DNA from: Poriferisphaera corsica
GTDB lineage: Bacteria; Planctomycetota; Phycisphaerae; Phycisphaerales; Phycisphaeraceae
Assembly: GCF_007747445.1 (NCBI RefSeq)
Contig: NZ_CP036425.1
Coordinates: 1,084,175 to 1,100,174, forward strand
Direction: 5' to 3'
DNA length: 16,000 nt
Shown: piece after piece, positions 6,223-15,856 of the stretch
Position numbering within the stretch: the first letter of the stretch is position 1
How the letters are laid out: every line of letters starts with the position of its first letter
Made by a program: the position numbers and the translations under genes
The notes under the pieces: generated by a model
What the model saw: only the letters and a program-made list of their open reading frames with translations
Databases searched by the model: none
What the model was told of the DNA's origin: nothing

Positions 6223-7137
6223 TTACCAGGTATAATGATCGATTCCGAAGACGAGAGCGCTGCCGAAGAAACCAACGCAGCAGATTAATGGAGCGATGAT
6301 GAAGAGTATGATACGTAGAGGAAGTCGAGAGCGAGATTCAGGTTTTACGGAGTGATATTCGAGAGAAATGAGTGCGAGGAAGGCGAGTATGGTGGTGGCG
6401 ATGCCGAGGAAGCGGTGGGTGTTGAGGATCCATTGTTTGTGGGGTGCGAGTATGAGGTAGGCGGCGTCGAAGAGACCGAGCGCGGTGGCGAGTAAGGCGG
6501 CGAAGGCGCCGAGCCAAAGGGTGAAGCGTGTGATGGATTTGAGTGAGTGTTGTTGGGTGGTGATGAGGAGGAATTCGGAAAGGGCGGCCACAAGAAGGAG
6601 TGAGATGGGGAAGTGTGAGGATGCGGGATGAAACTGGCCGAGGAACTGAATGATTTTGCGTGAAGCCGAGATGCGGGGTTGATCGATGGTGACGGTGCGT
6701 TCTGTGAGGGGGATGTCGTGGATGATGACGGTGGATTGATCGCGGGTGGCGGCGCCTGACTCGATCCACCATTTCACGGTTTCTTTTTGTTTCTCAGAGA
6801 GTGGGGGGATGTCGGAGTCAGGTGGCGGCATTTCGTCGGATTCGATGACTTCCCAGATGTAGGATTGATCGGGTTTTGTGGGGACGATGTAGTTGGGATC
6901 GGCGGCGAGCTGTTTGAGGTTGAGTATGAAGTCGAAGCCGCCTTCGGGGTCGTCGAGATCGGGGCCATGGCATTGTGCACAATGGTTGAGGAAGATGATG
7001 TGGACTTGTTCGGAGAGAATGAGTGAACGTTTGTGTTCGGTGTCATTGGTGTTGGAGGTTGGGGAGGTTTGCGCGTAAAGCAAAGCTGCGGTCATCAAAA
7101 GCATGAGCAGTGGTGGGAAGAGGTATTTCATGTGCAT
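6223..7137 (-). CDS. Secreted/membrane protein: N-terminal PSCyt1 (planctomycete cytochrome c, CxxCH) domain fused to a 4-TM DUF2231-like domain
   Basis: Signal peptide MKYLFPPLLMLLMTAALLYAQ. Heme-c motif CAQCH (nt 6967..6981, verified), followed by GPD..PEGGFDF, ..MPPP.. and ..WWIESGA as in PSCyt1. The C-terminal half has FHPASSHFPISLLL plus three further TM helices. The start may be the second ATG (7131), which has AGGA 7 nt upstream. Confidence 0.8.
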   Translation of the reverse strand: MHMKYLFPPLLMLLMTAALLYAQTSPTSNTNDTEHKRSLILSEQVHIIFLNHCAQCHGPDLDDPEGGFDFILNLKQLAADPNYIVPTKPDQSYIWEVIESDEMPPPDSDIPPLSEKQKETVKWWIESGAATRDQSTVIIHDIPLTERTVTIDQPRISASRKIIQFLGQFHPASSHFPISLLLVAALSEFLLITTQQHSLKSITRFTLWLGAFAALLATALGLFDAAYLILAPHKQWILNTHRFLGIATTILAFLALISLEYHSVKPESRSRLPLRIILFIIAPLICCVGFFGSALVFGIDHYTW

Positions 7138-7186
7138 GTCCTGATTTTTAGGGTTTTGTGAGATCAGGATTGGGAATCGCTACCTA

Positions 7187-7654
7187 CTAGTCTTTGAATT
7201 TTTTGTGGCTGGCTCGTTGGGTTTGCTTGACTTCGGAAAGGAATTGCGCGGCTTGCTTTTTGTTGCCGAGAAGGAGTGCGTTTTCGGCTTGAGCGAGGTT
7301 GATGATGACGTCGTTCATTTGGATGCGATACTCGGCGATGAGTTTGGGTTGCTCGGCGGGGGAGGCGTCTTCGATGATGTGGACGACGTGGGCTTGGTCT
7401 TTGGCGGTGAGTATGTGCTTGAGCATTTCAGCGGTGATATCGGCGGCTTGCTGTTCTTGGCCGTCTGCGCGAAGGGTTTTGTTCAGGTCACGGAAAAGGT
7501 CTTTGAGTTCTTCCATGGCGTGTTCGAGTGCTTCATCTTTATCGGCGGGTTCGGCGCGATCGTTGGCTGAGGAGGTCAGTGACCAAAAGCCAAGTGAGAG
7601 GGTGGCGAGTAGGATGAAAAGAGGAAGGCGGCGGCGCATTGTGGGCGTCGACAT
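7187..7654 (-). CDS. Periplasmic cytochrome b562-family four-helix-bundle protein
   Basis: 155 aa with a signal peptide (RRRLPLFILLATLSLGFWSLTSSA). The mature part aligns by eye with E. coli cytochrome b562 (recalled from memory). LEHAMEELKD matches LEDNMETLND, which carries the axial Met. QAAQFLSEVKQTQRASHKKFK matches QAAAEQLKTTRNAYHKKYR, which carries the axial His. GGAG lies 7 nt upstream of the ATG. Confidence 0.75.
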   Translation of the reverse strand: MSTPTMRRRLPLFILLATLSLGFWSLTSSANDRAEPADKDEALEHAMEELKDLFRDLNKTLRADGQEQQAADITAEMLKHILTAKDQAHVVHIIEDASPAEQPKLIAEYRIQMNDVIINLAQAENALLLGNKKQAAQFLSEVKQTQRASHKKFKD

Positions 7655-7945: not shown

Positions 7946-9022
7946 TTATTTGATTTTGACTTCTTTGCCGCCTTGGTCGGCGGATTTGTAGATGGCGTCG
8001 AGCATTTGCTGAACCATGAGGCCGTCTTCGATGGGTGCGATGGGCTTGGAGCCGTAGAGGATGTGGTCGATGAAGTTTCTAATCTTAAGATAGAAATTTT
8101 CAGCGAAGTCGGGTTGAGGGAGGTGGTGGGGTTTGGTGTCGACCATGTAGCCGTTTTCATCTTTAAAGATGCGTGAGTCATCCCAGGTTGCGCCGCCTTT
8201 GGTGCCCATGAGTTGGAAGTCGATTTTATTTTCTGGGATATGTGCGGCGAAGGATGATTCGACTTGGATGACGGCACCGTTGTCGAATCGGATGTGGCCG
8301 ACGGCGAGATCTTCGACGTCGTAGGTTTTGTAGTCCCAACCCTTCCAGATGGATTCGACTTGGTCGGAAGGTTTGTTGCCGAGGTAAGTCCATGTCATGC
8401 CTGATGCGGCGACGGGCTTGGGTGAACCCATGGCGTAGTGGCACATTTCGAGGGAGTGGACGCCGATGTCGATCATGGGACCGCCGCCTTGCAGGGCTTT
8501 TTGGCCGAAGACTCCCCAATTGGGGATGCCGCGGCGTCGTAGCGCGTGGACTTTGCCGTAGAGGACGTCGCCGATAACGCCTGAGTCGACTTGTTTTTTG
8601 ATGAATTGGGTGCGTGGGTCGAAACGCCATTGGTATGCGACGATGATTTTTTTGCGAGCTTTTTTAGCGGCATCGATCATGCGCTTGCCTTCACGAGCGT
8701 TCATCGCCATGGGTTTTTCGACCATGACGTGTGCGCCAGCGTTTGATGCGGCGATGGAGGCAGGAGCGTGGAGGCTGTTGGGTGTGCAGACGAAGACAAC
8801 GTCGGGTTTGGTTTCCCTGAGCATCTGTTTGTAATTGGTGTAGAGGATGTCGTGGGGCAGGTCATGCTTTTCGGCGCGGGCGAGCATGGTGTCCATGTTG
8901 ATGTCGGCGAGCGCGGCGACTTCGATTTCATCGATGCGTTTGAAGCAATCGTGATAGATGTCGGTGATGCCGCCTGAACCGATGAAGGCGGCTTTTAGTT
9001 TTTTAGTTTGTTTCGCACCCAT
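7946..9022 (-). CDS. Gfo/Idh/MocA family NAD(P)-dependent oxidoreductase
   Basis: 358 aa. N-terminal Rossmann motif KAAFIGSGGI, then VCTPNSLHA and the EKPMA motif typical of the family, followed by a C-terminal alpha/beta domain. GGAG lies 5 nt upstream of the ATG. No signal peptide. Confidence 0.9.
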   Translation of the reverse strand: MGAKQTKKLKAAFIGSGGITDIYHDCFKRIDEIEVAALADINMDTMLARAEKHDLPHDILYTNYKQMLRETKPDVVFVCTPNSLHAPASIAASNAGAHVMVEKPMAMNAREGKRMIDAAKKARKKIIVAYQWRFDPRTQFIKKQVDSGVIGDVLYGKVHALRRRGIPNWGVFGQKALQGGGPMIDIGVHSLEMCHYAMGSPKPVAASGMTWTYLGNKPSDQVESIWKGWDYKTYDVEDLAVGHIRFDNGAVIQVESSFAAHIPENKIDFQLMGTKGGATWDDSRIFKDENGYMVDTKPHHLPQPDFAENFYLKIRNFIDHILYGSKPIAPIEDGLMVQQMLDAIYKSADQGGKEVKIK

Positions 9023-9281
9023 GGTTACTCCATTGCAGCGTTTACGAGGTGAGGATGATCGGGTGTGATCGTTGTTTGGTCTTTGAACGTTGATCGCGCA
9101 TTATCGCGGATGGGATGTGGGACGCAATGCGAAATTGAAGAATGTCATAAAAAGAATGTGTGGAGGTGTGGATCGGGAGAAAAATGTATGAATGGGAGAG
9201 AATAGGGTGCAAGGACATGTATGGGGGCAGTATGATGTGATCGGATGATTTGTGAACGATCGAGGGCAGGCATTGAACGAT

Positions 9282-10334
9282 ATGAGTGAAACACAAAGAC
9301 AGGATGTGGCTGATGGTCAGGGCGCTGGCGGGGGTGTTGGGGGTGAGCAGGAGCCGGTGCATCCGTTGGCGGCGCTGCGGGCAGATTTGGCAGAGTTTGG
9401 GACGATTGAATGGCAGAAGAAAGATGAGCGGACGCTGTTAGAGCGTTATATGCCGTTCATTTTGTCGATGGGTATACATGTGGGTTTGGTTGTGGGTGCG
9501 ATCTTTGCGGTATGGACAACGATTGTGGTGGTGGCGGATCATGAGACGGTGGTGCCGAATATTGAGTTGGGACAGAGGCCGGGGGCGCCTTTGAAGCAGT
9601 CGAAGGCGAAGTCGGTTGAGTCTCAATCTTTGACGAGTAAGCGAACGATTACGGAGGTGGAAACGTCGCAGTCGACGTTGTCGCCGCAGCCGATTACGAA
9701 TTTACCTTTGGTGGGTATGGCGGGTGGGATGTCGAAGATGAATCCGTTTGCGGCGGATGTGGGTGGTGGTGCTGAATTTCGCGCGTCGTTTTTTGGGTCA
9801 GCGGGTAATGCGCGAACGGTTGTGTTTGTGGTTGATGCATCGGGATCGTTGATTGACACGTTGCCTACGGTGTTGAGGGAATTGCAAAAATCGATTCGCA
9901 AGTTATCTGATCGTCAGAATTTCACGGTGATTTTTTTTCAGGGCAAGCGGGCGTTTGAGGTGCCGCCTCGTGGTTTGAAGCAGGGGACGGCGGCGTTGAA
10001 GCAGCAAGTGATTGAATGGATAGATCCGGCGGCTCATCAAGTTGAACCGGGCGAGCAGACGAATCCGTTGCGGGCATTGGGGATGGCGCTTGGGTATAAG
10101 CCGGACTTGGTGTTTTTGCTGTCGGATAATATTACGGGGCAGGGGGTTTATGAGGTGGATCAGAAGCGATTGATCAATGAGATTGCGCGATCGAATCATC
10201 GTGGTACACGGATCAATACGATTCAGTTTTTGTATGCGGATCCATTAGAGGGCGAGGGGAGGCCGGGGACGATGCGGTTGATTGCGGAACAAACGGGTGG
10301 GCTATTTAAATTTGTGGAAGAAGGAGATCTTTAG
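9282..10334 (+). CDS. Single-pass membrane protein: cytoplasmic N-terminus, TonB/TolA-like TM anchor (SxxxH), Ser/Thr/Gln-rich linker, C-terminal von Willebrand factor A domain with a complete MIDAS motif
   Basis: vWA signature VVFVVDASGSL (DxSxS at nt 9834..9848, verified), with downstream Thr (EQTNPLRAL) and Asp (FLLSDN). TM helix YMPFILSMGIHVGLVVGAIFAVWTTIVVV. The start is ambiguous: ATG at 9282 (chosen) or in-frame GTG at 9252 (track). Neither has a clear SD. Confidence 0.85.
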   Translation: MSETQRQDVADGQGAGGGVGGEQEPVHPLAALRADLAEFGTIEWQKKDERTLLERYMPFILSMGIHVGLVVGAIFAVWTTIVVVADHETVVPNIELGQRPGAPLKQSKAKSVESQSLTSKRTITEVETSQSTLSPQPITNLPLVGMAGGMSKMNPFAADVGGGAEFRASFFGSAGNARTVVFVVDASGSLIDTLPTVLRELQKSIRKLSDRQNFTVIFFQGKRAFEVPPRGLKQGTAALKQQVIEWIDPAAHQVEPGEQTNPLRALGMALGYKPDLVFLLSDNITGQGVYEVDQKRLINEIARSNHRGTRINTIQFLYADPLEGEGRPGTMRLIAEQTGGLFKFVEEGDL

Positions 10335-10468
10335 TCCGTCTTATAGGGTAGAGGGGCGTAGGGGGCGGTGCGCGGGTGTGAGGGAGTCTGTATTGAAGGA
10401 TTGCTGCAAGATCTTGGGTTAGGGGAACTTGCGACAATCTATTGGTTGATGAAAAGGGTTTGAGAACC

Positions 10469-10497
10469 TTGGAATCTGGGCGCAAAAGAATTACAAT
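10469..10497 (+). promoter_or_regulatory. Candidate sigma70-like promoter for the exbB-exbD-exbD-repeat-protein operon
   Basis: TTGGAA (10469-10474), exactly 17 nt of spacer, then TACAAT (10492-10497), about 185 nt upstream of the exbB ATG. This is pattern match only; promoter consensus in this lineage is not established. Confidence 0.3.
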
Positions 10498-10681
10498 GAA
10501 AACCACGATCAAGGGAATTCAGGGTTAACTTGATGGGTATGAATCGGGGGAATGTTTGTTTGGGCTGGTCGATCGTTGATCAATGAAGATGATGCTGATG
10601 TTATGAGCTGCTGAGTTGTGAGATGAGGCGGCGAAGCGGGGGGATGTAGCAGAGGCAGTAGATAGAACAGAGGATGTACGT

Positions 10682-11848
10682 ATGCGGCGAATGGTCGTCA
10701 TCGTGACGGGAATATTGATGCTGATGTTGCCTATGAATGTGGCGTTTGCGCAGTCAGATGGCTCGGAGGTTTCTTGGTTTCGTCAGTTTATGTGGGCGGG
10801 AGATTTTTTGGGTTTGGTGATCATATGGACATTGCTAGCGATGTCTGCATTCTCGATTGGATTTTCTGTGAATCTGATGCTGGGTTATCGTCGTAAGAAG
10901 ATGATGCCAGAAGAGACGCTGAAGAAGATTGAGGTGCAGTTGGGTAATCGGCAATACCGCGAAGCGATTACTGAGGCGGATAATAATCCATCGTATTTGT
11001 GTAAGATCATTGGGGCGGCATTGCATGAAGCACCGAATGGTTTTGTGTCGATGGAGCGAGCGATTGAAGAGACGTCGGATAACGAGACGGTTAGGATACT
11101 GAGGCCGTTGGAGTACTTGAATGTGTTGGGGAATATTGCACCGATGGTCGGTTTGTTCGGGACGGTGTACGGGATGATTCGGGCGTTTCAGGAGTTGGTT
11201 GCTGCGGGAGGCAATGCAGAGCCGGGCAAGTTGGCGGCGGGTATTTCGACGGCATTGATAACGACGTTTTGGGGTTTGGTTGTTGCGGTTCCGGCGTTGA
11301 CGGCCTATGCACTGATTAGGAACAAGGTTGATGCGTATGCATCGGAGGCAGTGTTGGTCGCAGAGAGTCTAATAGCGCCGTTTAAGCCGACACAGGTGGC
11401 GATTCAGCAGGCGCGTATGCAACAAGCACAATTGCAGGCACAGATTCAGGCTCAGGCTCAGGCTCAGGTCTTAGCTAGAAATCAGGGGTCGGGGATGGGA
11501 CCATCACCGGTTCAGCAGGCGGGTGCGGTGCAACAGGAACAGGGACAAGGCCAGCAAGTTCAGTCGCAACAGCCCGTACCGCAGAATGTGCAGCAAGCTC
11601 CGGTGGTGGAGGATGTGCAACCGGTGAACGATGGGTCGCAGGGTGAGGTGATGGCAGAGGTGGAAGCGGAGCCGGCGCAAGGGCAGCCGAATGTGGATAC
11701 TGATCGTGCTCAGGCTGGATCGGGTGCGGGGTATTCGTTAGCGGATGCGGTGAATGATCAACCTTCGACTGAGCATCGAAAAATGAGTTCGCCGTTGTTG
11801 TCGGCGGCGGCGTCGCAGCAGCAGAAGATACAGGAACGTAAGCAGTAA
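10682..11848 (+). CDS. exbB: MotA/TolQ/ExbB-family proton channel protein with N-terminal signal-like segment and a ~150-aa low-complexity Gln/Ala-rich C-terminal extension
   Basis: Family motifs LGNIAPMVGLFGTVYGMIRAF and LAAGISTALITTFWGLVVAVPALTAYA. N-terminus MRRMVVIVTGILMLMLPMNVAFA-QS. The core ends near residue 235 and the rest is a QQARMQQAQLQAQIQAQAQAQ... tail. Followed by two exbD genes. Confidence 0.9.
   Translation: MRRMVVIVTGILMLMLPMNVAFAQSDGSEVSWFRQFMWAGDFLGLVIIWTLLAMSAFSIGFSVNLMLGYRRKKMMPEETLKKIEVQLGNRQYREAITEADNNPSYLCKIIGAALHEAPNGFVSMERAIEETSDNETVRILRPLEYLNVLGNIAPMVGLFGTVYGMIRAFQELVAAGGNAEPGKLAAGISTALITTFWGLVVAVPALTAYALIRNKVDAYASEAVLVAESLIAPFKPTQVAIQQARMQQAQLQAQIQAQAQAQVLARNQGSGMGPSPVQQAGAVQQEQGQGQQVQSQQPVPQNVQQAPVVEDVQPVNDGSQGEVMAEVEAEPAQGQPNVDTDRAQAGSGAGYSLADAVNDQPSTEHRKMSSPLLSAAASQQQKIQERKQ
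11447..11470 (+). repeat. In-frame hexanucleotide tandem repeat (CAGGCT)3 plus CAGGTC, encoding QAQAQAQV in the ExbB tail
   Basis: Perfect units at 11447-11452, 11453-11458 and 11459-11464. The repeat is codon-aligned: (11447-10682) is divisible by 3. Confidence 0.7.
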
Positions 11849-11877: not shown

Positions 11878-12387
11878 ATGGGGTTTGAAGAGTTCTGTAT
11901 GAGATCATTTGTTCACAAAACTGGCCCGGCAACGCCGAGCATGAATTTGACGCCGCTGATTGACATCGTCTTTTTGCTGGTGGTTTTTTTTATGTTGGCG
12001 TCGACGATGGTGACGAAGCAATCAGTAAAAATGATTGTTCCAGATTTAGAGCAGCCTGAGACGCGAGAGATGCCGGAGAAGGATCGGATTGTTGTCAATA
12101 TCGCCCCGAAGACAGGTGATCGAGACAAGCGTGCTCCGTTGGATTATGACGGCAAGCCAGAATTTGTGCAGATTGGGGCTTACGGGACATTTAAGATTGA
12201 TGATCATGAGAAGATTGTTGAGGCGATTAAGTTGATGGCGGATCGTAATCCATCGGCGGAGGTTTATTTGCGTGCGGATGCTGCGATATTTTATGAGCAG
12301 ATCGAACCGATCATGGATGATATTACGAAGAGTGGCATTGCGAGGGTGAACCTCGTGGCGTACTTGCCAGAAGAAGCGGCTAACTGA
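11878..12387 (+). CDS. exbD: ExbD/TolR-family biopolymer transport protein (paralogue 1)
   Basis: Signature MNLTPLIDIVFLLVVFFML TM segment followed by a periplasmic domain (VYLRADAAIFYEQIEPIMDDITKSGIARVNLV). It begins 30 nt after the exbB stop. Alternative ATG at 11899. Confidence 0.85.
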   Translation: MGFEEFCMRSFVHKTGPATPSMNLTPLIDIVFLLVVFFMLASTMVTKQSVKMIVPDLEQPETREMPEKDRIVVNIAPKTGDRDKRAPLDYDGKPEFVQIGAYGTFKIDDHEKIVEAIKLMADRNPSAEVYLRADAAIFYEQIEPIMDDITKSGIARVNLVAYLPEEAAN

Positions 12388-12445
12388 TTGATAGAGGCGT
12401 GCTGACTTGAGTACGGATGAAGGACAACAAAATTCAGAGCAGTTT

Positions 12446-12958
12446 ATGGCGCAAGGCTGTGCTGTGGATGACGAATATGTGCCTGTGCGGAAACGGCGGT
12501 TGCTGCCTCCTGCGAAGATGCAGTTGCAGATTACCTCTTTGATTGATGTGATTTTTCAGTTGCTGATTTACTTTATCGTGACAGCATCTTTTGTGATGGG
12601 TGAGGGAGCGTTGCCGGCGAATTTGCCGCATGGTGGGGATCAGGCAACATCGGAAGCGGCACACCCGGAGCAGCCTTTGAATATTGTGTTGACGCCGGTG
12701 GGGAATTCATCTGTGCGTATTGAAGTGGAAGGTTTTCGTAAGCCAACAGAATCGTTTGTGCAGTTGCAGAGTTACTTGACGATGTTGCAGTACAACCCGA
12801 AGAAAAAACGATCGGGTTTTTACAAGCCCAGTAATCCTGTCATCATCAAGCCAGTGGGACAGGTCAGGTGGCAGCATGTGTTGAATGCATTTAATTCAGC
12901 TGTTTCGATTGGTTATGAGAATGTATCGTTTGCGAGAGTCGAGAGATTTGTTGAGTAG
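12446..12958 (+). CDS. exbD: ExbD/TolR-family biopolymer transport protein (paralogue 2, divergent)
   Basis: MQLQITSLIDVIFQLLIYFIVTASF TM segment plus a C-terminal domain (VIIKPVGQVRWQHVLNAFNSAVSIGYENVSF). Start is either the ATG at 12446 (chosen) or the TTG at 12407 (track), which has GAGG 9 nt upstream. Confidence 0.8.
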   Translation: MAQGCAVDDEYVPVRKRRLLPPAKMQLQITSLIDVIFQLLIYFIVTASFVMGEGALPANLPHGGDQATSEAAHPEQPLNIVLTPVGNSSVRIEVEGFRKPTESFVQLQSYLTMLQYNPKKKRSGFYKPSNPVIIKPVGQVRWQHVLNAFNSAVSIGYENVSFARVERFVE

Positions 12959-13003: not shown

Positions 13004-15856
13004 ATGAAGCGAAAAAATGGTCAGTTGGTGTCAAAGTTTTGGCGGTGCGTGCTGTGTGTTTTGATCGGTATGTTGTTAGGTGTGAAGGGTTGGTCGGCGG
13101 AGTTTGATGAGGGATTGGTCGAGCCGATGGCAATGAATGGGGAGGTGTTGGAAAGCTATACGCACGGGTTGGGAGATTATCATCTTGCGTACTTATTTTC
13201 ATCAGAGGCGGATCAATCAGAGGTTGTAAAAGAACGAAAGGCAGTTGAAGCTAGGATTCGGTTTGATGATTACATTCGACGCGCACGGCAGGCAGCTGAG
13301 ACTAATCAGGCGTTAGCGAATCGGTTGCAGGATTTGGGACTTGAAGCGTTGGATGAGGTACAGCGATCTTATCGTGAGATGGTTGAGGCGTTTGGGAATT
13401 CGCCACGGCGGCCGATATGGCTGACGAATATGGCGGAGTTGAAGTTACAGCAGATTTTGCAGATCAAGTATGGCTTTGCATCGGAGTCGTGCCGATATGG
13501 TGTGCCAACGCGTGTGCAGGAAATTGCATATGCAGAGGTGGTGCGTGAGGCGTTTTTTTTATTAGCAGAGGCAGATGCGAGTTTATATAAGCTGCAGACG
13601 CGATTGCCGCGATCGCCGGGTTTTGCAGCGTTGAAGACGCGAGGGTTGCCGGGGATGTTGTTTGATGAGTATGCGGCAAAACGTGTGCCGTTCTATCTTG
13701 GGATTGCGTCGATTTATGTAGCGACATTGCCGGCTGATGATATCTATTTTACAGGTGAATATGACAAGACGAATAGTTTGCTGATACGTAAGGAAACGAT
13801 TGAGGCAGAGCGGAAACGGTTGCTGGGAATTGGATTGGGGCGTTTGGATGGTTTTGTAACAGATCAGGGGGATGTGGCGGGTGTTCGATTTTCGGCGATG
13901 TTGCATGCATCTTATGCGCTATTTATGCGTGAAGAATATCAATCATCGATTCAGTTGTTGCAGCCACTGCTTAGATCGCAGCGACGTGATTTGACGACTT
14001 TGGGGGCGCAAATGTTATACGCACATGCGCTGGCAAAGAGTGATGTGCGGACGGCATTGGGTGAATTGAGGCGGTTGCAGGGATCACATCCGATTGTGAT
14101 TCAGTCGCCCATCTTTAAGTTGATGGTTGTTGATGCAATGTTTCGCGTGCAGGTTGATAATCTTGAACAGTTGCGTCGCGGACAGGATGGTGAATCTGCG
14201 CTTGGGCAAGCATTCAATGTGTATTATGAATTGATTGAAAGCCCGTCGTTGAGTGAGATGGAGCGGCAACAGATTAGTTACATGGTTGCGCAACGTTTTG
14301 AACGATTGGTGGCTTATGTTGATGATGTAAATCAGATGCCTGCACGCGTGCGGATGTTAATGACCGATTATGGTTTACAGCAGATGCAGGAAGCGATTGC
14401 GCGTGGTGAGCAAAATGTCGAGGGGAGTGAGCTGAACCGGTATTACCGATTGATACTGGATTTGGCGAAATCTTTGGATGAGGTTGATGTGGAGCCTGAG
14501 GTGAGGGCAAGAGTGGGATATAATGCGGCAATAGCGATGTATTTGCCAGATAAGCAATCGATGGAAAATTTGCAGGAGGTGGCAAATATTCTGGCGGAGC
14601 TAGCAAAGAAATTTCCGCAGCAATCAGTGTCTGTGAAGGCGATCACTTTTGCGACGGAAACGTTGCAACATCTTCATCAGAAATATCCGGATGTTGGTCG
14701 TATTGGTGATGATTATGCGGATGCGGCAGAGACGTTATTTAATGCATTTTCTGTCTCGAAAGCTGCAGACAATCAGCGTGTTTATTATGCGTTTTATCTG
14801 TTGCAGGGTAAAGGGCAATATGCTGCTGCGGCGGGGCATTACAAGCTTGTGCCGTTTGATCATCCTCAGTATTACGATGCCCAGCGTGAACTGATGTTTT
14901 GCTATGATGCACAGATTTCTCTGAAGCAGCAGGCAAATCAAAACTTTGATATTTTACTTGAGGCGATGAATGCGGATGCGAGGCGGATATTACGTGAGGT
15001 ATCGAAGGAAGATAAAAATATTGCGGAACGATCTGGGAAAGCGCAGATTGCTGAAGCGGTGACGGTGATGTTGCAAGCGGCAGGAATGGAGATGCGGGGA
15101 GCTTATGCGGATGCAGTCGCGTTGCTGGACGAGTCGGATGTAGATTTTGAGGCTTATTCAAACTTGTTACCCCGTGTACTGCAGGTGAGGATTAGCGCTT
15201 TGATTGGATTGCAGCAGTTGTCAGAGGCGGCGGCTTTATCGAAGACGTTTATGCAAGCGAGGCCGGAGCTGGCAGCGGCAACGATTGATCAGTTGCTGAA
15301 GCAGATCAATCGGCGATTTGATGTCGTGTTGAATCCATTGAATGAGTTGTTGCCACATGAGCGATTAAAGAAAGAAGCGCAGGCAGTTTTGACGTTGGCT
15401 GAAACGTTTCAGGTTGCGAATGAGGATGGTTTGATACAGCCGGGGTTGGATGATGAGTACTTGGCGAATATGGACATTATTAAATCGCGGGCGTATCGCG
15501 TTCTGGGGAGACCACAGGAGGCTGTGGATTTGCTTGGGCCTCAGACTGTGAAGTTTGGTGATGTGCTTGAATTGATTATGGCATATGGGGATGCTAATTA
15601 TGATTTAGGCACAAGTGAATCATTGGAAAGAGCACGTGTGCAGTATCGTATGGTGATGGGTTCTTATACTGAGAAACCATATCCCGAGGTGTATTACCAT
15701 GCATGGTTGAATTACTTGAAGGCGTGTATTGAGGGAGATGTGCAAGTTGAGGACGTGCCGTTGTATGTGGGGCAGCTGCGTATGCGTGATAGTGAGTTAG
15801 GTGGCGAGGTGTTTAAGAAAGCATTCGACGATTTGATTGAGCGGGTTAATCAATAG
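13004..15856 (+). CDS. Large (950 aa) secreted or membrane-anchored all-helical, TPR-like repeat protein of unknown function
   Basis: N-terminal signal/anchor KFWRCVLCVLIGMLLGVKGWSA-EF. The remainder is helical-repeat-like, with recurrent A/Y/L-spaced segments such as YAAAAGHYKLV, YADAVALLDES and EAVDLLGPQ...AYGDANYDLG. It begins 46 nt after exbD2 and shares the G/T-ending codon usage of the operon. No catalytic motif was recognised. Confidence 0.8.
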   Translation: MKRKNGQLVSKFWRCVLCVLIGMLLGVKGWSAEFDEGLVEPMAMNGEVLESYTHGLGDYHLAYLFSSEADQSEVVKERKAVEARIRFDDYIRRARQAAETNQALANRLQDLGLEALDEVQRSYREMVEAFGNSPRRPIWLTNMAELKLQQILQIKYGFASESCRYGVPTRVQEIAYAEVVREAFFLLAEADASLYKLQTRLPRSPGFAALKTRGLPGMLFDEYAAKRVPFYLGIASIYVATLPADDIYFTGEYDKTNSLLIRKETIEAERKRLLGIGLGRLDGFVTDQGDVAGVRFSAMLHASYALFMREEYQSSIQLLQPLLRSQRRDLTTLGAQMLYAHALAKSDVRTALGELRRLQGSHPIVIQSPIFKLMVVDAMFRVQVDNLEQLRRGQDGESALGQAFNVYYELIESPSLSEMERQQISYMVAQRFERLVAYVDDVNQMPARVRMLMTDYGLQQMQEAIARGEQNVEGSELNRYYRLILDLAKSLDEVDVEPEVRARVGYNAAIAMYLPDKQSMENLQEVANILAELAKKFPQQSVSVKAITFATETLQHLHQKYPDVGRIGDDYADAAETLFNAFSVSKAADNQRVYYAFYLLQGKGQYAAAAGHYKLVPFDHPQYYDAQRELMFCYDAQISLKQQANQNFDILLEAMNADARRILREVSKEDKNIAERSGKAQIAEAVTVMLQAAGMEMRGAYADAVALLDESDVDFEAYSNLLPRVLQVRISALIGLQQLSEAAALSKTFMQARPELAAATIDQLLKQINRRFDVVLNPLNELLPHERLKKEAQAVLTLAETFQVANEDGLIQPGLDDEYLANMDIIKSRAYRVLGRPQEAVDLLGPQTVKFGDVLELIMAYGDANYDLGTSESLERARVQYRMVMGSYTEKPYPEVYYHAWLNYLKACIEGDVQVEDVPLYVGQLRMRDSELGGEVFKKAFDDLIERVNQ

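Follow-up and report, generated by a model that had tools for sequence, protein, structure and literature searches.

A 16,000-nucleotide stretch of Poriferisphaera corsica contig NZ_CP036425.1 (positions 1,084,175 to 1,100,174), called the window below, encodes a membrane-anchored protein with a vWA (von Willebrand factor A) domain beside one ExbB gene and two ExbD genes. The single transmembrane (TM) helix of this protein is probably the motor-docking anchor of a periplasmic force transducer of the TonB/TolA kind, in which the head is a vWA domain with a metal ion-dependent adhesion site (MIDAS) and the TonB C-terminal domain is absent. An earlier note on this DNA had read the helix as a motor-coupling anchor; the comparisons described here support that reading rather than prove it. 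vWA force transducers (Tichowtungia aerotolerans family) have been proposed from genome analysis (Mol Biol Evol 2025;42(6):msaf138; PMC12204202). Because a Ser-x3-His helix is combined with an adjoining ExbB/ExbD motor, the window protein is very likely a member of this class, as judged by the features described for it.

Residues are numbered from the ATG at 9282, which yields the 350-residue protein of database entry P0001. A longer open reading frame begins at an in-frame GTG (9252), and the residues named S72 and H76 in the earlier note, which used that frame, are S62 and H66 here. Table 1 lists the parts of the protein and the neighbouring genes.

The Ser-x3-His helix

The TM segment at 9447-9533 (forward strand) translates to YMPFILSMGIHVGLVVGAIFAVWTTIVVV, as had been reported. 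Within it, the Ser62 codon tcg occupies 9465-9467 and the His66 codon cat occupies 9477-9479, which agrees with the earlier reading of the DNA. The E. coli TonB sequence used for comparison in that reading proved exact: RefSeq E. coli K-12 TonB contains ...FPWPTLLSVCIHGAVVAGLLYTSVH... / ...RRFPWPTLLSVCIHGAVVAGLLYTSVHQ.... With this reference the seven identities in 23 ungapped positions (P, L, S, I, H, V and G) are real.

The conservation of both residues among orthologues, on which the earlier note had made its claim depend, is high. Counts were made in the 120 best homologues, which are 42-83% identical. His66 is present in all 120 and Ser62 in 115, the remainder having Ala (four) or Thr (one). 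Further well-kept positions are P58 (114/120), position 59 (Trp in 115, Phe in five), A73 (115/120), F75 (116/120) and W78 (119/120), followed by V77 (96/120). The signature of the helix is therefore written P58-[W/F]59-x2-S62-x3-H66-x6-A73-x3-V77-W78. On average the helix is conserved to 3.13 bits, about as strongly as the vWA core (3.07), with 0.93 bits for the N-tail and 2.0 for the linker. The best-conserved helix residues (P58, S62, H66, V70, A73 and V77) lie on one face, within a 120-degree arc. Positions 62, 66, 73 and 77 fall in the register of TonB residues 16, 20, 27 and 31, the SHLS motif, and carry the letters Ser-His-Ala-Val.

A wider view of the helix was obtained with a profile of residues 52-106, which was compared with 1.84 billion cluster representatives (50% clusters) and retrieved 198 proteins at E ≤ 1e-3. 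The 147 new matches comprise 139 with Ser-x3-His, six with Ala-x3-His and one with Gly-x3-His, that is, [S/A/G]-x3-H in 146 of 147. The DxSxS motif of the head also occurs in 99 of the 111 new matches with at least 300 residues. The His is thus invariant across more than 260 sequences. As far as can be seen, each of the 198 matches is a protein with this vWA architecture or a piece of one, and they gave no link to TonB_C-type proteins.

The motor genes and the partner proteins

The structural role of the Ser-His pair is best described for the E. coli systems. In cryo-electron microscopy structures of TonB-ExbBD, TonB S16 and H20 contact S34 and W38 on TM1 of ExbB, and W38 touches P190 on TM3 (PMC12215075). 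In TolAQR, TolA S18 and H22 contact TolQ S28 and W32, which are linked to a conserved proline of TolQ TM3, printed as both Pro138 and Pro187 (PMC12215075).

We aligned 68 ExbBs of the family and the window copy with E. coli ExbB and TolQ. Ser55 of the window ExbB (nt 10844-10846) aligns with ExbB S34/TolQ S28 and is present in 69 of 69 sequences. Pro204 aligns with P190/P187 and is invariant, as are the pore threonines T161 and T195. Two of the three residues of the transducer-contact network (Ser and Pro) are therefore kept and the Trp is not. Both ExbD paralogues have an invariant essential TM aspartate, D29 in the first and D47 in the second; an ExbB pentamer with an ExbD1/ExbD2 heterodimer is therefore the motor expected from the sequences. 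Together with helix conservation and synteny, the retention of ExbB Ser55 and of the ExbD aspartates supports the earlier reading of the helix as an anchor for motor coupling.

The 950-residue protein encoded downstream of ExbD2 is probably a TPR-like solenoid. Its single-sequence AlphaFold2 (AF2) model consists of helices throughout, with a predicted local distance difference test (pLDDT) score of 43, too low for a fold search. PADLOC found no defence system in the window; ExbB gave just a marginal match to the ZorA/MotA family.

The ExbB of the window has a C-terminal, cytoplasmic low-complexity tail of about 150 residues that is rich in Gln and Ala (residues ~240-388, nt 11400-11848). ExbB is 245-286 residues long in three of the related loci (L083, L084 and L085) and is a 271-residue open reading frame in a fourth (L004); the ZRK32 locus seems to encode a tailed form.

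The juxtamembrane segment, the linker and the vWA head

The stretch that follows directly on the helix ranks second in conservation within the protein. Its family consensus is EEEVIIP-IARLSxT-PGAPL, and the window version reads HETVVP-NIELGQR-PGAPL. Pro92 is found in all 120 homologues, L96 in 115, S97 in 109 and P100 in 117. In TonB, the D-box P44-ISVTMVT-P52 forms a β-strand that is captured by the ExbD dimer (PMC10907165). The P92-x7-P100 segment has the same P-x7-P form, and the distance from the His to the first Pro is 26 residues here and 24 in TonB. Phe175 of ExbD2 aligns with L132 of E. coli ExbD, a residue of the D-box pocket.

The linker that follows is rich in Ser, Thr, Ala and Gly, with 25% Ser+Thr; the window copy is rich in Ser, Thr, Gln and Ala. 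It had been described before as Ser/Thr/Gln-rich rather than Pro-rich, and it is indeed poor in Pro. The spacing from W78 to D185 is narrow, with a median of 106 residues and a range of 99-118.

The vWA fold is predicted with confidence: the AF2 pLDDT is about 90 or higher over residues 175-350, and Foldseek matches this region to vWA domains with E values from 3e-11 to 1e-6. The best Foldseek matches are ITIH1 (6fpy, 4e-10), the calcium-channel alpha2delta subunit, CMG2 and TRAP. The MIDAS is complete and consists of D185-A-S187-G-S189 (nt 9834-9848), S/T260 and D282. In the 120 homologues, D185 and D282 are invariant, S187 is Ser in 116 and Thr in four, S189 is Ser in 118 and Thr in two, and S/T260 is kept in 108.

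Gene order, paralogues and the sister subfamily

Among the 441 homologues of the vWA protein at E ≤ 1e-3, every named one comes from the Phycisphaerae or Planctomycetota. A genome scan yielded 196 relatives, and synteny was counted in 79 loci. The best 80 of the 196 relatives all belong to Phycisphaerae or Planctomycetota, the closest being ZRK32 (72% identity) and Poriferisphaera sp. WC338 (62%). On the same strand, the vWA gene is followed by ExbB in 68 of the 79 loci, by ExbD1 in 65, by ExbD2 in 63 and by the large helical protein in 55; many of the misses are due to contig ends. The synteny persists across identities of 36-72%. In 57 loci a gene of about 366 codons for a protein with a signal peptide and TPR lies between vWA and ExbB (for example L004, 10921-12021). 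In the window the corresponding spacer (10335-10681, 347 bp) is non-coding, and neither the small TPR gene nor a remnant of it was found there. The cluster in the window contains no TonB_C or TolA gene according to Pfam and NCBIfam, and tolB/pal neighbours were not found at the loci.

Two or three tandem vWA paralogues are present in 23 loci (including L018, L020, L024, L030, L031, L034 and L040), and some genomes hold a vWA copy away from the ExbB/ExbD cluster. Most of these tandem and unlinked paralogues keep PWxxSxxxH, and several lose the juxtamembrane segment IIPxARLSxTPGAPL. The latter hint at transducers which dock on ExbB and engage ExbD differently.

A sister subfamily in the Planctomycetota (seed P0261; P0276-P0392) occupies the same neighbourhood with the same operon layout (L084, 8001-14990). 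Its helix reads MPWxISxxxH and its MIDAS reads DRSGS. The ExbB TM1 of this subfamily, seen at one locus (L084), reads D-V-A-S-W, with the Trp retained and Asp in place of the Ser, the reverse of the window family.

Some loci contain further genes. At one (L085, 4827-15161) a gene for a TolC-like OEP protein stands in a row with a pair of vWA genes, ExbB, a set of three ExbD genes and a gene for a 1039-residue protein, an arrangement that may be a clue to an outer-membrane partner. At another (L083, 9204-9647, reverse strand) a third ExbD gene, standing by itself, is found a short way upstream of vWA on the other strand.

Relation to known systems

The published vWA transducers begin with an SHLS helix in which the His is conserved, continue with a disordered region that contains a 'motor box' and with a domain II some 100 residues long, and end in a vWA domain; they are reported from Proteobacteria, Planctomycetes, Verrucomicrobia, Bacteroidetes and Rhodothermaeota (PMC12204202). 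In AlphaFold 3 models of complexes with the same architecture, the helix docks at the site of TonB/TolA by way of its conserved His (PMC12204202). Deletion phenotypes of vWA transducers are not reported in that paper. A full-text literature search returned no further paper on these proteins, and a 2026 review of the Ton/Tol motors makes no mention of vWA.

The window protein resembles this class in its N-terminal helix with Ser and His, a conserved segment, the candidate motor box, in the disordered region after the membrane, the length of domain II (a median of 106 residues from W78 to D185) and the C-terminal vWA domain. The genetic setting is also alike, with a single tolQ-like gene, a pair of unlike tolR-like genes and one or more TPR genes nearby, and the class is reported in Planctomycetes and other phyla of the Planctomycetes-Verrucomicrobia-Chlamydiae group. 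Two differences concern the locus. Here the vWA gene comes first and the large helical protein last, whereas the paper describes a vWA gene that frequently lies downstream of those for the TPR protein and the motor; and the small TPR gene, present at most Phycisphaerae loci, is missing from the window.

With TonB (E. coli b1252) the protein shares a lone N-terminal helix with Ser-x3-His close to its cytoplasmic end, the preceding Pro-Trp and a P-x7-P at nearly the D-box distance from the His. The motor is TonB-like as well: ExbB keeps the equivalents of Ser34, Pro190 and Thr148/181, and ExbD that of Asp25. Unlike TonB, however, the protein has neither a TonB_C domain nor a Pro-rich rod nor profile similarity, Leu27 and Ser31 are Ala and Val, the Trp38 position of ExbB is aliphatic, and there are two different ExbD subunits. 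By these comparisons the window protein is not a member of the TonB family; it is TonB-like in its predicted way of working.

The likeness to TolA (E. coli b0739) lies in six helix identities with the family consensus and in the same three-domain logic, whereas TolA domain III, a helical domain II and tolB/pal neighbours are all missing. A functional link between a TolQR-type motor and a vWA/MIDAS protein is also known from the Myxococcus Agl-Glt machinery and its vWA adhesin CglB (PMC9946355). CglB differs in being an outer-membrane lipoprotein with no TonB-like anchor in the inner membrane, and there are no Glt genes in the window.

Counter-evidence and membrane topology

Several observations weigh against a TonB-like motor anchor. 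First, the SHLS motif's Leu and Ser positions hold Ala73 and Val77, both conserved and on the same helical face; that these later positions of the motif are not clearly matched had been said before. Celia et al. report that the L and S are poorly conserved among TonBs too, whose structural conservation lies in Ser-His (PMC12215075). Second, the position of ExbB Trp38/TolQ Trp32 is Ile, Val, Met or Leu in the family.

Third, profiles do not connect the protein with TonB or TolA. The residue 52-106 profile found neither of them among all PDB chains at E values up to 10; the search gave just two unrelated proteins at E about 0.65. Models of TonB, TolA or BatA were matched neither in NCBIfam (whole protein, E ≤ 1) nor in Pfam (residues 1-123, E ≤ 10). 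The profile link suggested as a check in the earlier note was thus not obtained, and shared descent and convergence are both possible for the helix.

Fourth, the AF2 monomer has no β-strand in the D-box-like segment, where pLDDT is 55-61. For this reason, and since the sequences do not match, the likeness to the D-box is one of form and position and is suggestive only. Fifth, Pro makes up 5% of the linker, whose predicted disorder sets it apart from the stiff polyproline rod of TonB.

Lastly, the charges around the helix do not favour the orientation of TonB. The N-tail is acidic in the family, and the mean number of Lys+Arg is 0.54 for the 15 residues that precede the helix and 1.3 behind it. 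Since the family averages fewer basic residues before the helix than after it, we rejected the positive-inside rule as evidence of topology. The basic flank KKDERTLLER, from which an N-in topology had been argued earlier, is indeed present in the window, but it is not conserved (the KKDER patch is specific to the lineage of the window) and the argument fails for the family. Evidence of another sort comes from the sister subfamily, in which 82 of 110 full-length proteins have a four-Cys zinc ribbon N-terminal of the helix. Zinc ribbons are cytoplasmic. Their place upstream of the helix therefore indicates an N-in, vWA-out orientation, and in this way the N-in topology of the vWA protein is supported.

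Alternative explanations

The strongest competing explanation accepts that the helix joins the ExbB/ExbD complex and denies that the protein is a trans-envelope transducer. It would instead be a regulatory, assembly or anchoring subunit with the linker as a leash, and might for example gate the motor or tie it to TPR scaffolds in the periplasm. A disordered and Pro-poor linker would suit such a subunit, and so would the two TPR-like periplasmic proteins that co-occur with it (the 950-residue and ~366-residue proteins, counted above). Across the examined loci the cluster has no conserved gene for an outer-membrane partner, which also points this way, as do the tandem paralogues that keep the helix motif and lose the D-box-like segment. 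We consider this explanation plausible but unlikely. A span of fixed length would call for just such a tight spacing between the TM helix and the vWA domain, conservation of the D-box-like segment equals that of the helix, and the complete MIDAS implies a specific ligand. In addition, the protein mirrors the TonB/TolA architecture domain for domain (PMC12204202).

A second possibility is a generic signal-anchor. Here the likeness to TonB and the adjacency to ExbB/ExbD would be coincidental, or the His would serve another role such as self-association or the sensing of metal or protons. The weakness of the sequence match to TonB gives this idea its force. In composition-preserving shuffles, seven or more identities have P = 0.0014 in the fixed register and P = 0.023 for the best of 17 registers, so the identity count is only marginally beyond chance once the choice of register is allowed for. 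The family consensus shares four residues with TonB (P, S, H and V) and, when aligned on the His, six with TolA (I, S, H, V, L and I); the TonB and TolA helices have five residues in common. The lack of a profile match to either protein fits as well. What makes a generic anchor highly improbable is the behaviour of the motif itself. We collected 604 TM-like segments from all other open reading frames of at least 200 residues in the 79 related loci: 7.5% contain a His, and none contains Ser-x3-His. The invariant His, a helix as conserved as the vWA core, synteny kept over a wide range of identity and the invariant contact Ser of ExbB all speak against it as well.

The combination of a vWA domain, a membrane anchor and TPR proteins is also that of Bat operons, and the window cluster, with its vWA protein and neighbouring TPR-like proteins, is superficially Bat-like. 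However, a BatA/BatB-type protein of the aerotolerance operon, acting with TPR proteins independently of the motor, is hardly credible here: the N-terminal 123 residues match neither BatA_N nor any other Pfam family even at E ≤ 10, the single helix has an invariant His, and the linkage to ExbB/ExbD is strict.

Finally, the TPH-vWA class (PMC12204202) likewise comprises membrane-tethered vWA proteins encoded next to a TolQ/ExbB-like gene, their helix standing in for TolR/ExbD within the TolQ-like pentamer and bearing a proton-binding, ExbD-like Asp; but this class has no SHLS residues and no tolR/exbD neighbours, the window shows the reverse, and membership, the least probable of all these readings, is refuted by a helix without any Asp or Glu and by the two conserved ExbD genes with their essential Asp.

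A proposed mechanism of the transducer

For a motor-docked force transducer with a vWA head we infer the following docking geometry and path of force. An ExbB pentamer and an ExbD1/ExbD2 heterodimer would form a proton-driven 5:2 motor in the inner membrane. The vWA protein would be inserted N-in/C-out, and its Ser62/His66 face would bind the outside of the ExbB ring close to the cytoplasmic leaflet, against Ser55 of TM1. About 12 residues past the membrane, the proline-bracketed segment could be captured as a β-strand by the periplasmic domains of ExbD. Motor action would then pull on the flexible linker of roughly 100 residues. The metal-dependent vWA head, if bound to an acidic residue of a distal partner at or near the outer membrane, would transmit the force, and the co-encoded helical and TPR proteins would perhaps organise this partner.

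Features of the locus

Table 1. Parts of the vWA protein and genes downstream of it (window coordinates; position 1 is the first nucleotide of the window)
Feature	Position	Strand	Evidence and remarks
vWA protein gene, 350 aa, membrane-anchored	9282..10334	+	441 homologues at E ≤ 1e-3
N-tail, predicted cytoplasmic, residues 1-55	9282..9446	+	Poorly conserved (mean 0.93 bits), acidic in family
TM helix, residues 56-84	9447..9533	+	AF2 helix 49-85, pLDDT 85-96
Juxtamembrane segment, residues 87-104, proline-bracketed, D-box/motor-box-like	9540..9593	+	Conservation 3.22 bits
Disordered linker, residues 105-170, 'domain II' equivalent	9594..9791	+	AF2 pLDDT < 50
vWA domain, residues 175-350, complete MIDAS	9804..10331	+	AF2 pLDDT ~90+, Foldseek
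ExbB/TolQ-type subunit, 388 aa, signal-like N-terminus, Q-rich C-terminal tail	10682..11848	+	PF01618 (MotA_ExbB), 6e-28
ExbD/TolR paralogue 1, 169 aa, TM Asp D29	11878..12387	+	PF02472, 1e-20
ExbD/TolR paralogue 2, 183 aa, TM Asp D47	12407..12958	+	PF02472, 1.5e-14
950-aa protein, signal-like N-terminus, no Pfam match	13004..15856	+	Homologue with weak TPR_19/TPR_12 matches

A scan of 8950-10750 for promoters and terminators gave no signal above the shuffled expectation. Directly upstream of the vWA gene the window contains a divergent gene for a GFO/IDH/MocA oxidoreductase (7946-9022, reverse strand). In about 17 related loci a homologue of this gene precedes vWA at a distance of 0.3-3 kb, in the opposite orientation. 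Farther upstream (6223-7654, reverse strand), a planctomycete cytochrome c (PSCyt1) plus DUF2231 membrane protein is encoded beside a secreted protein resembling cytochrome b562; the PSCyt1/b562-like pair is conserved in the closest relatives only (ZRK32 and Poriferisphaera sp. WC338).

Significance

The interpretation of this class of proteins as transducers is already published (PMC12204202). To it the present analysis adds the Ser-His-Ala-Val register of the helix, an invariant ExbB Ser combined with a missing Trp, and a P-x7-P at TonB-like spacing. The evidence of topology from the zinc ribbon, the narrow range of linker length, the complete MIDAS and the strict synteny in Phycisphaerae are further additions. 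A single transducer stands here with a single ExbB, two distinct ExbDs and a single large helical protein, and S62, H66 and ExbB S55 are invariant or nearly so, which makes the locus a clean test case. The strain that it most likely comes from, P. corsica KS4, is motile and in culture.

To our knowledge, TonB and TolA were long the sole carriers known to bring proton-motive energy to the outer membrane by pulling. If the helix is a motor anchor, vWA/MIDAS would be a third head group on the same anchor, and the ExbB/ExbD motor would be a general engine with exchangeable tools.

A broader reading takes the vWA transducer, ExbB/ExbD1/ExbD2 and the TPR partners together as a principal trans-envelope force system of the Ton/Tol type in Phycisphaerae. 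As a whole we hold it only tentatively and rather doubt it. In this broader reading the SHLS-type anchor may have arisen by convergence or be of very old descent, with Ser-His-Ala-Val facing a Trp-less ExbB, and the grip of the MIDAS on a partner in the outer membrane or cell wall may replace the coupling of TonB to its receptors or of TolA to Pal. Such a system could power a process so far not ascribed to 5:2 motors, such as the tethering or constriction of the outer membrane in planctomycetes that have no Pal, the uptake of polymers or surface motility.

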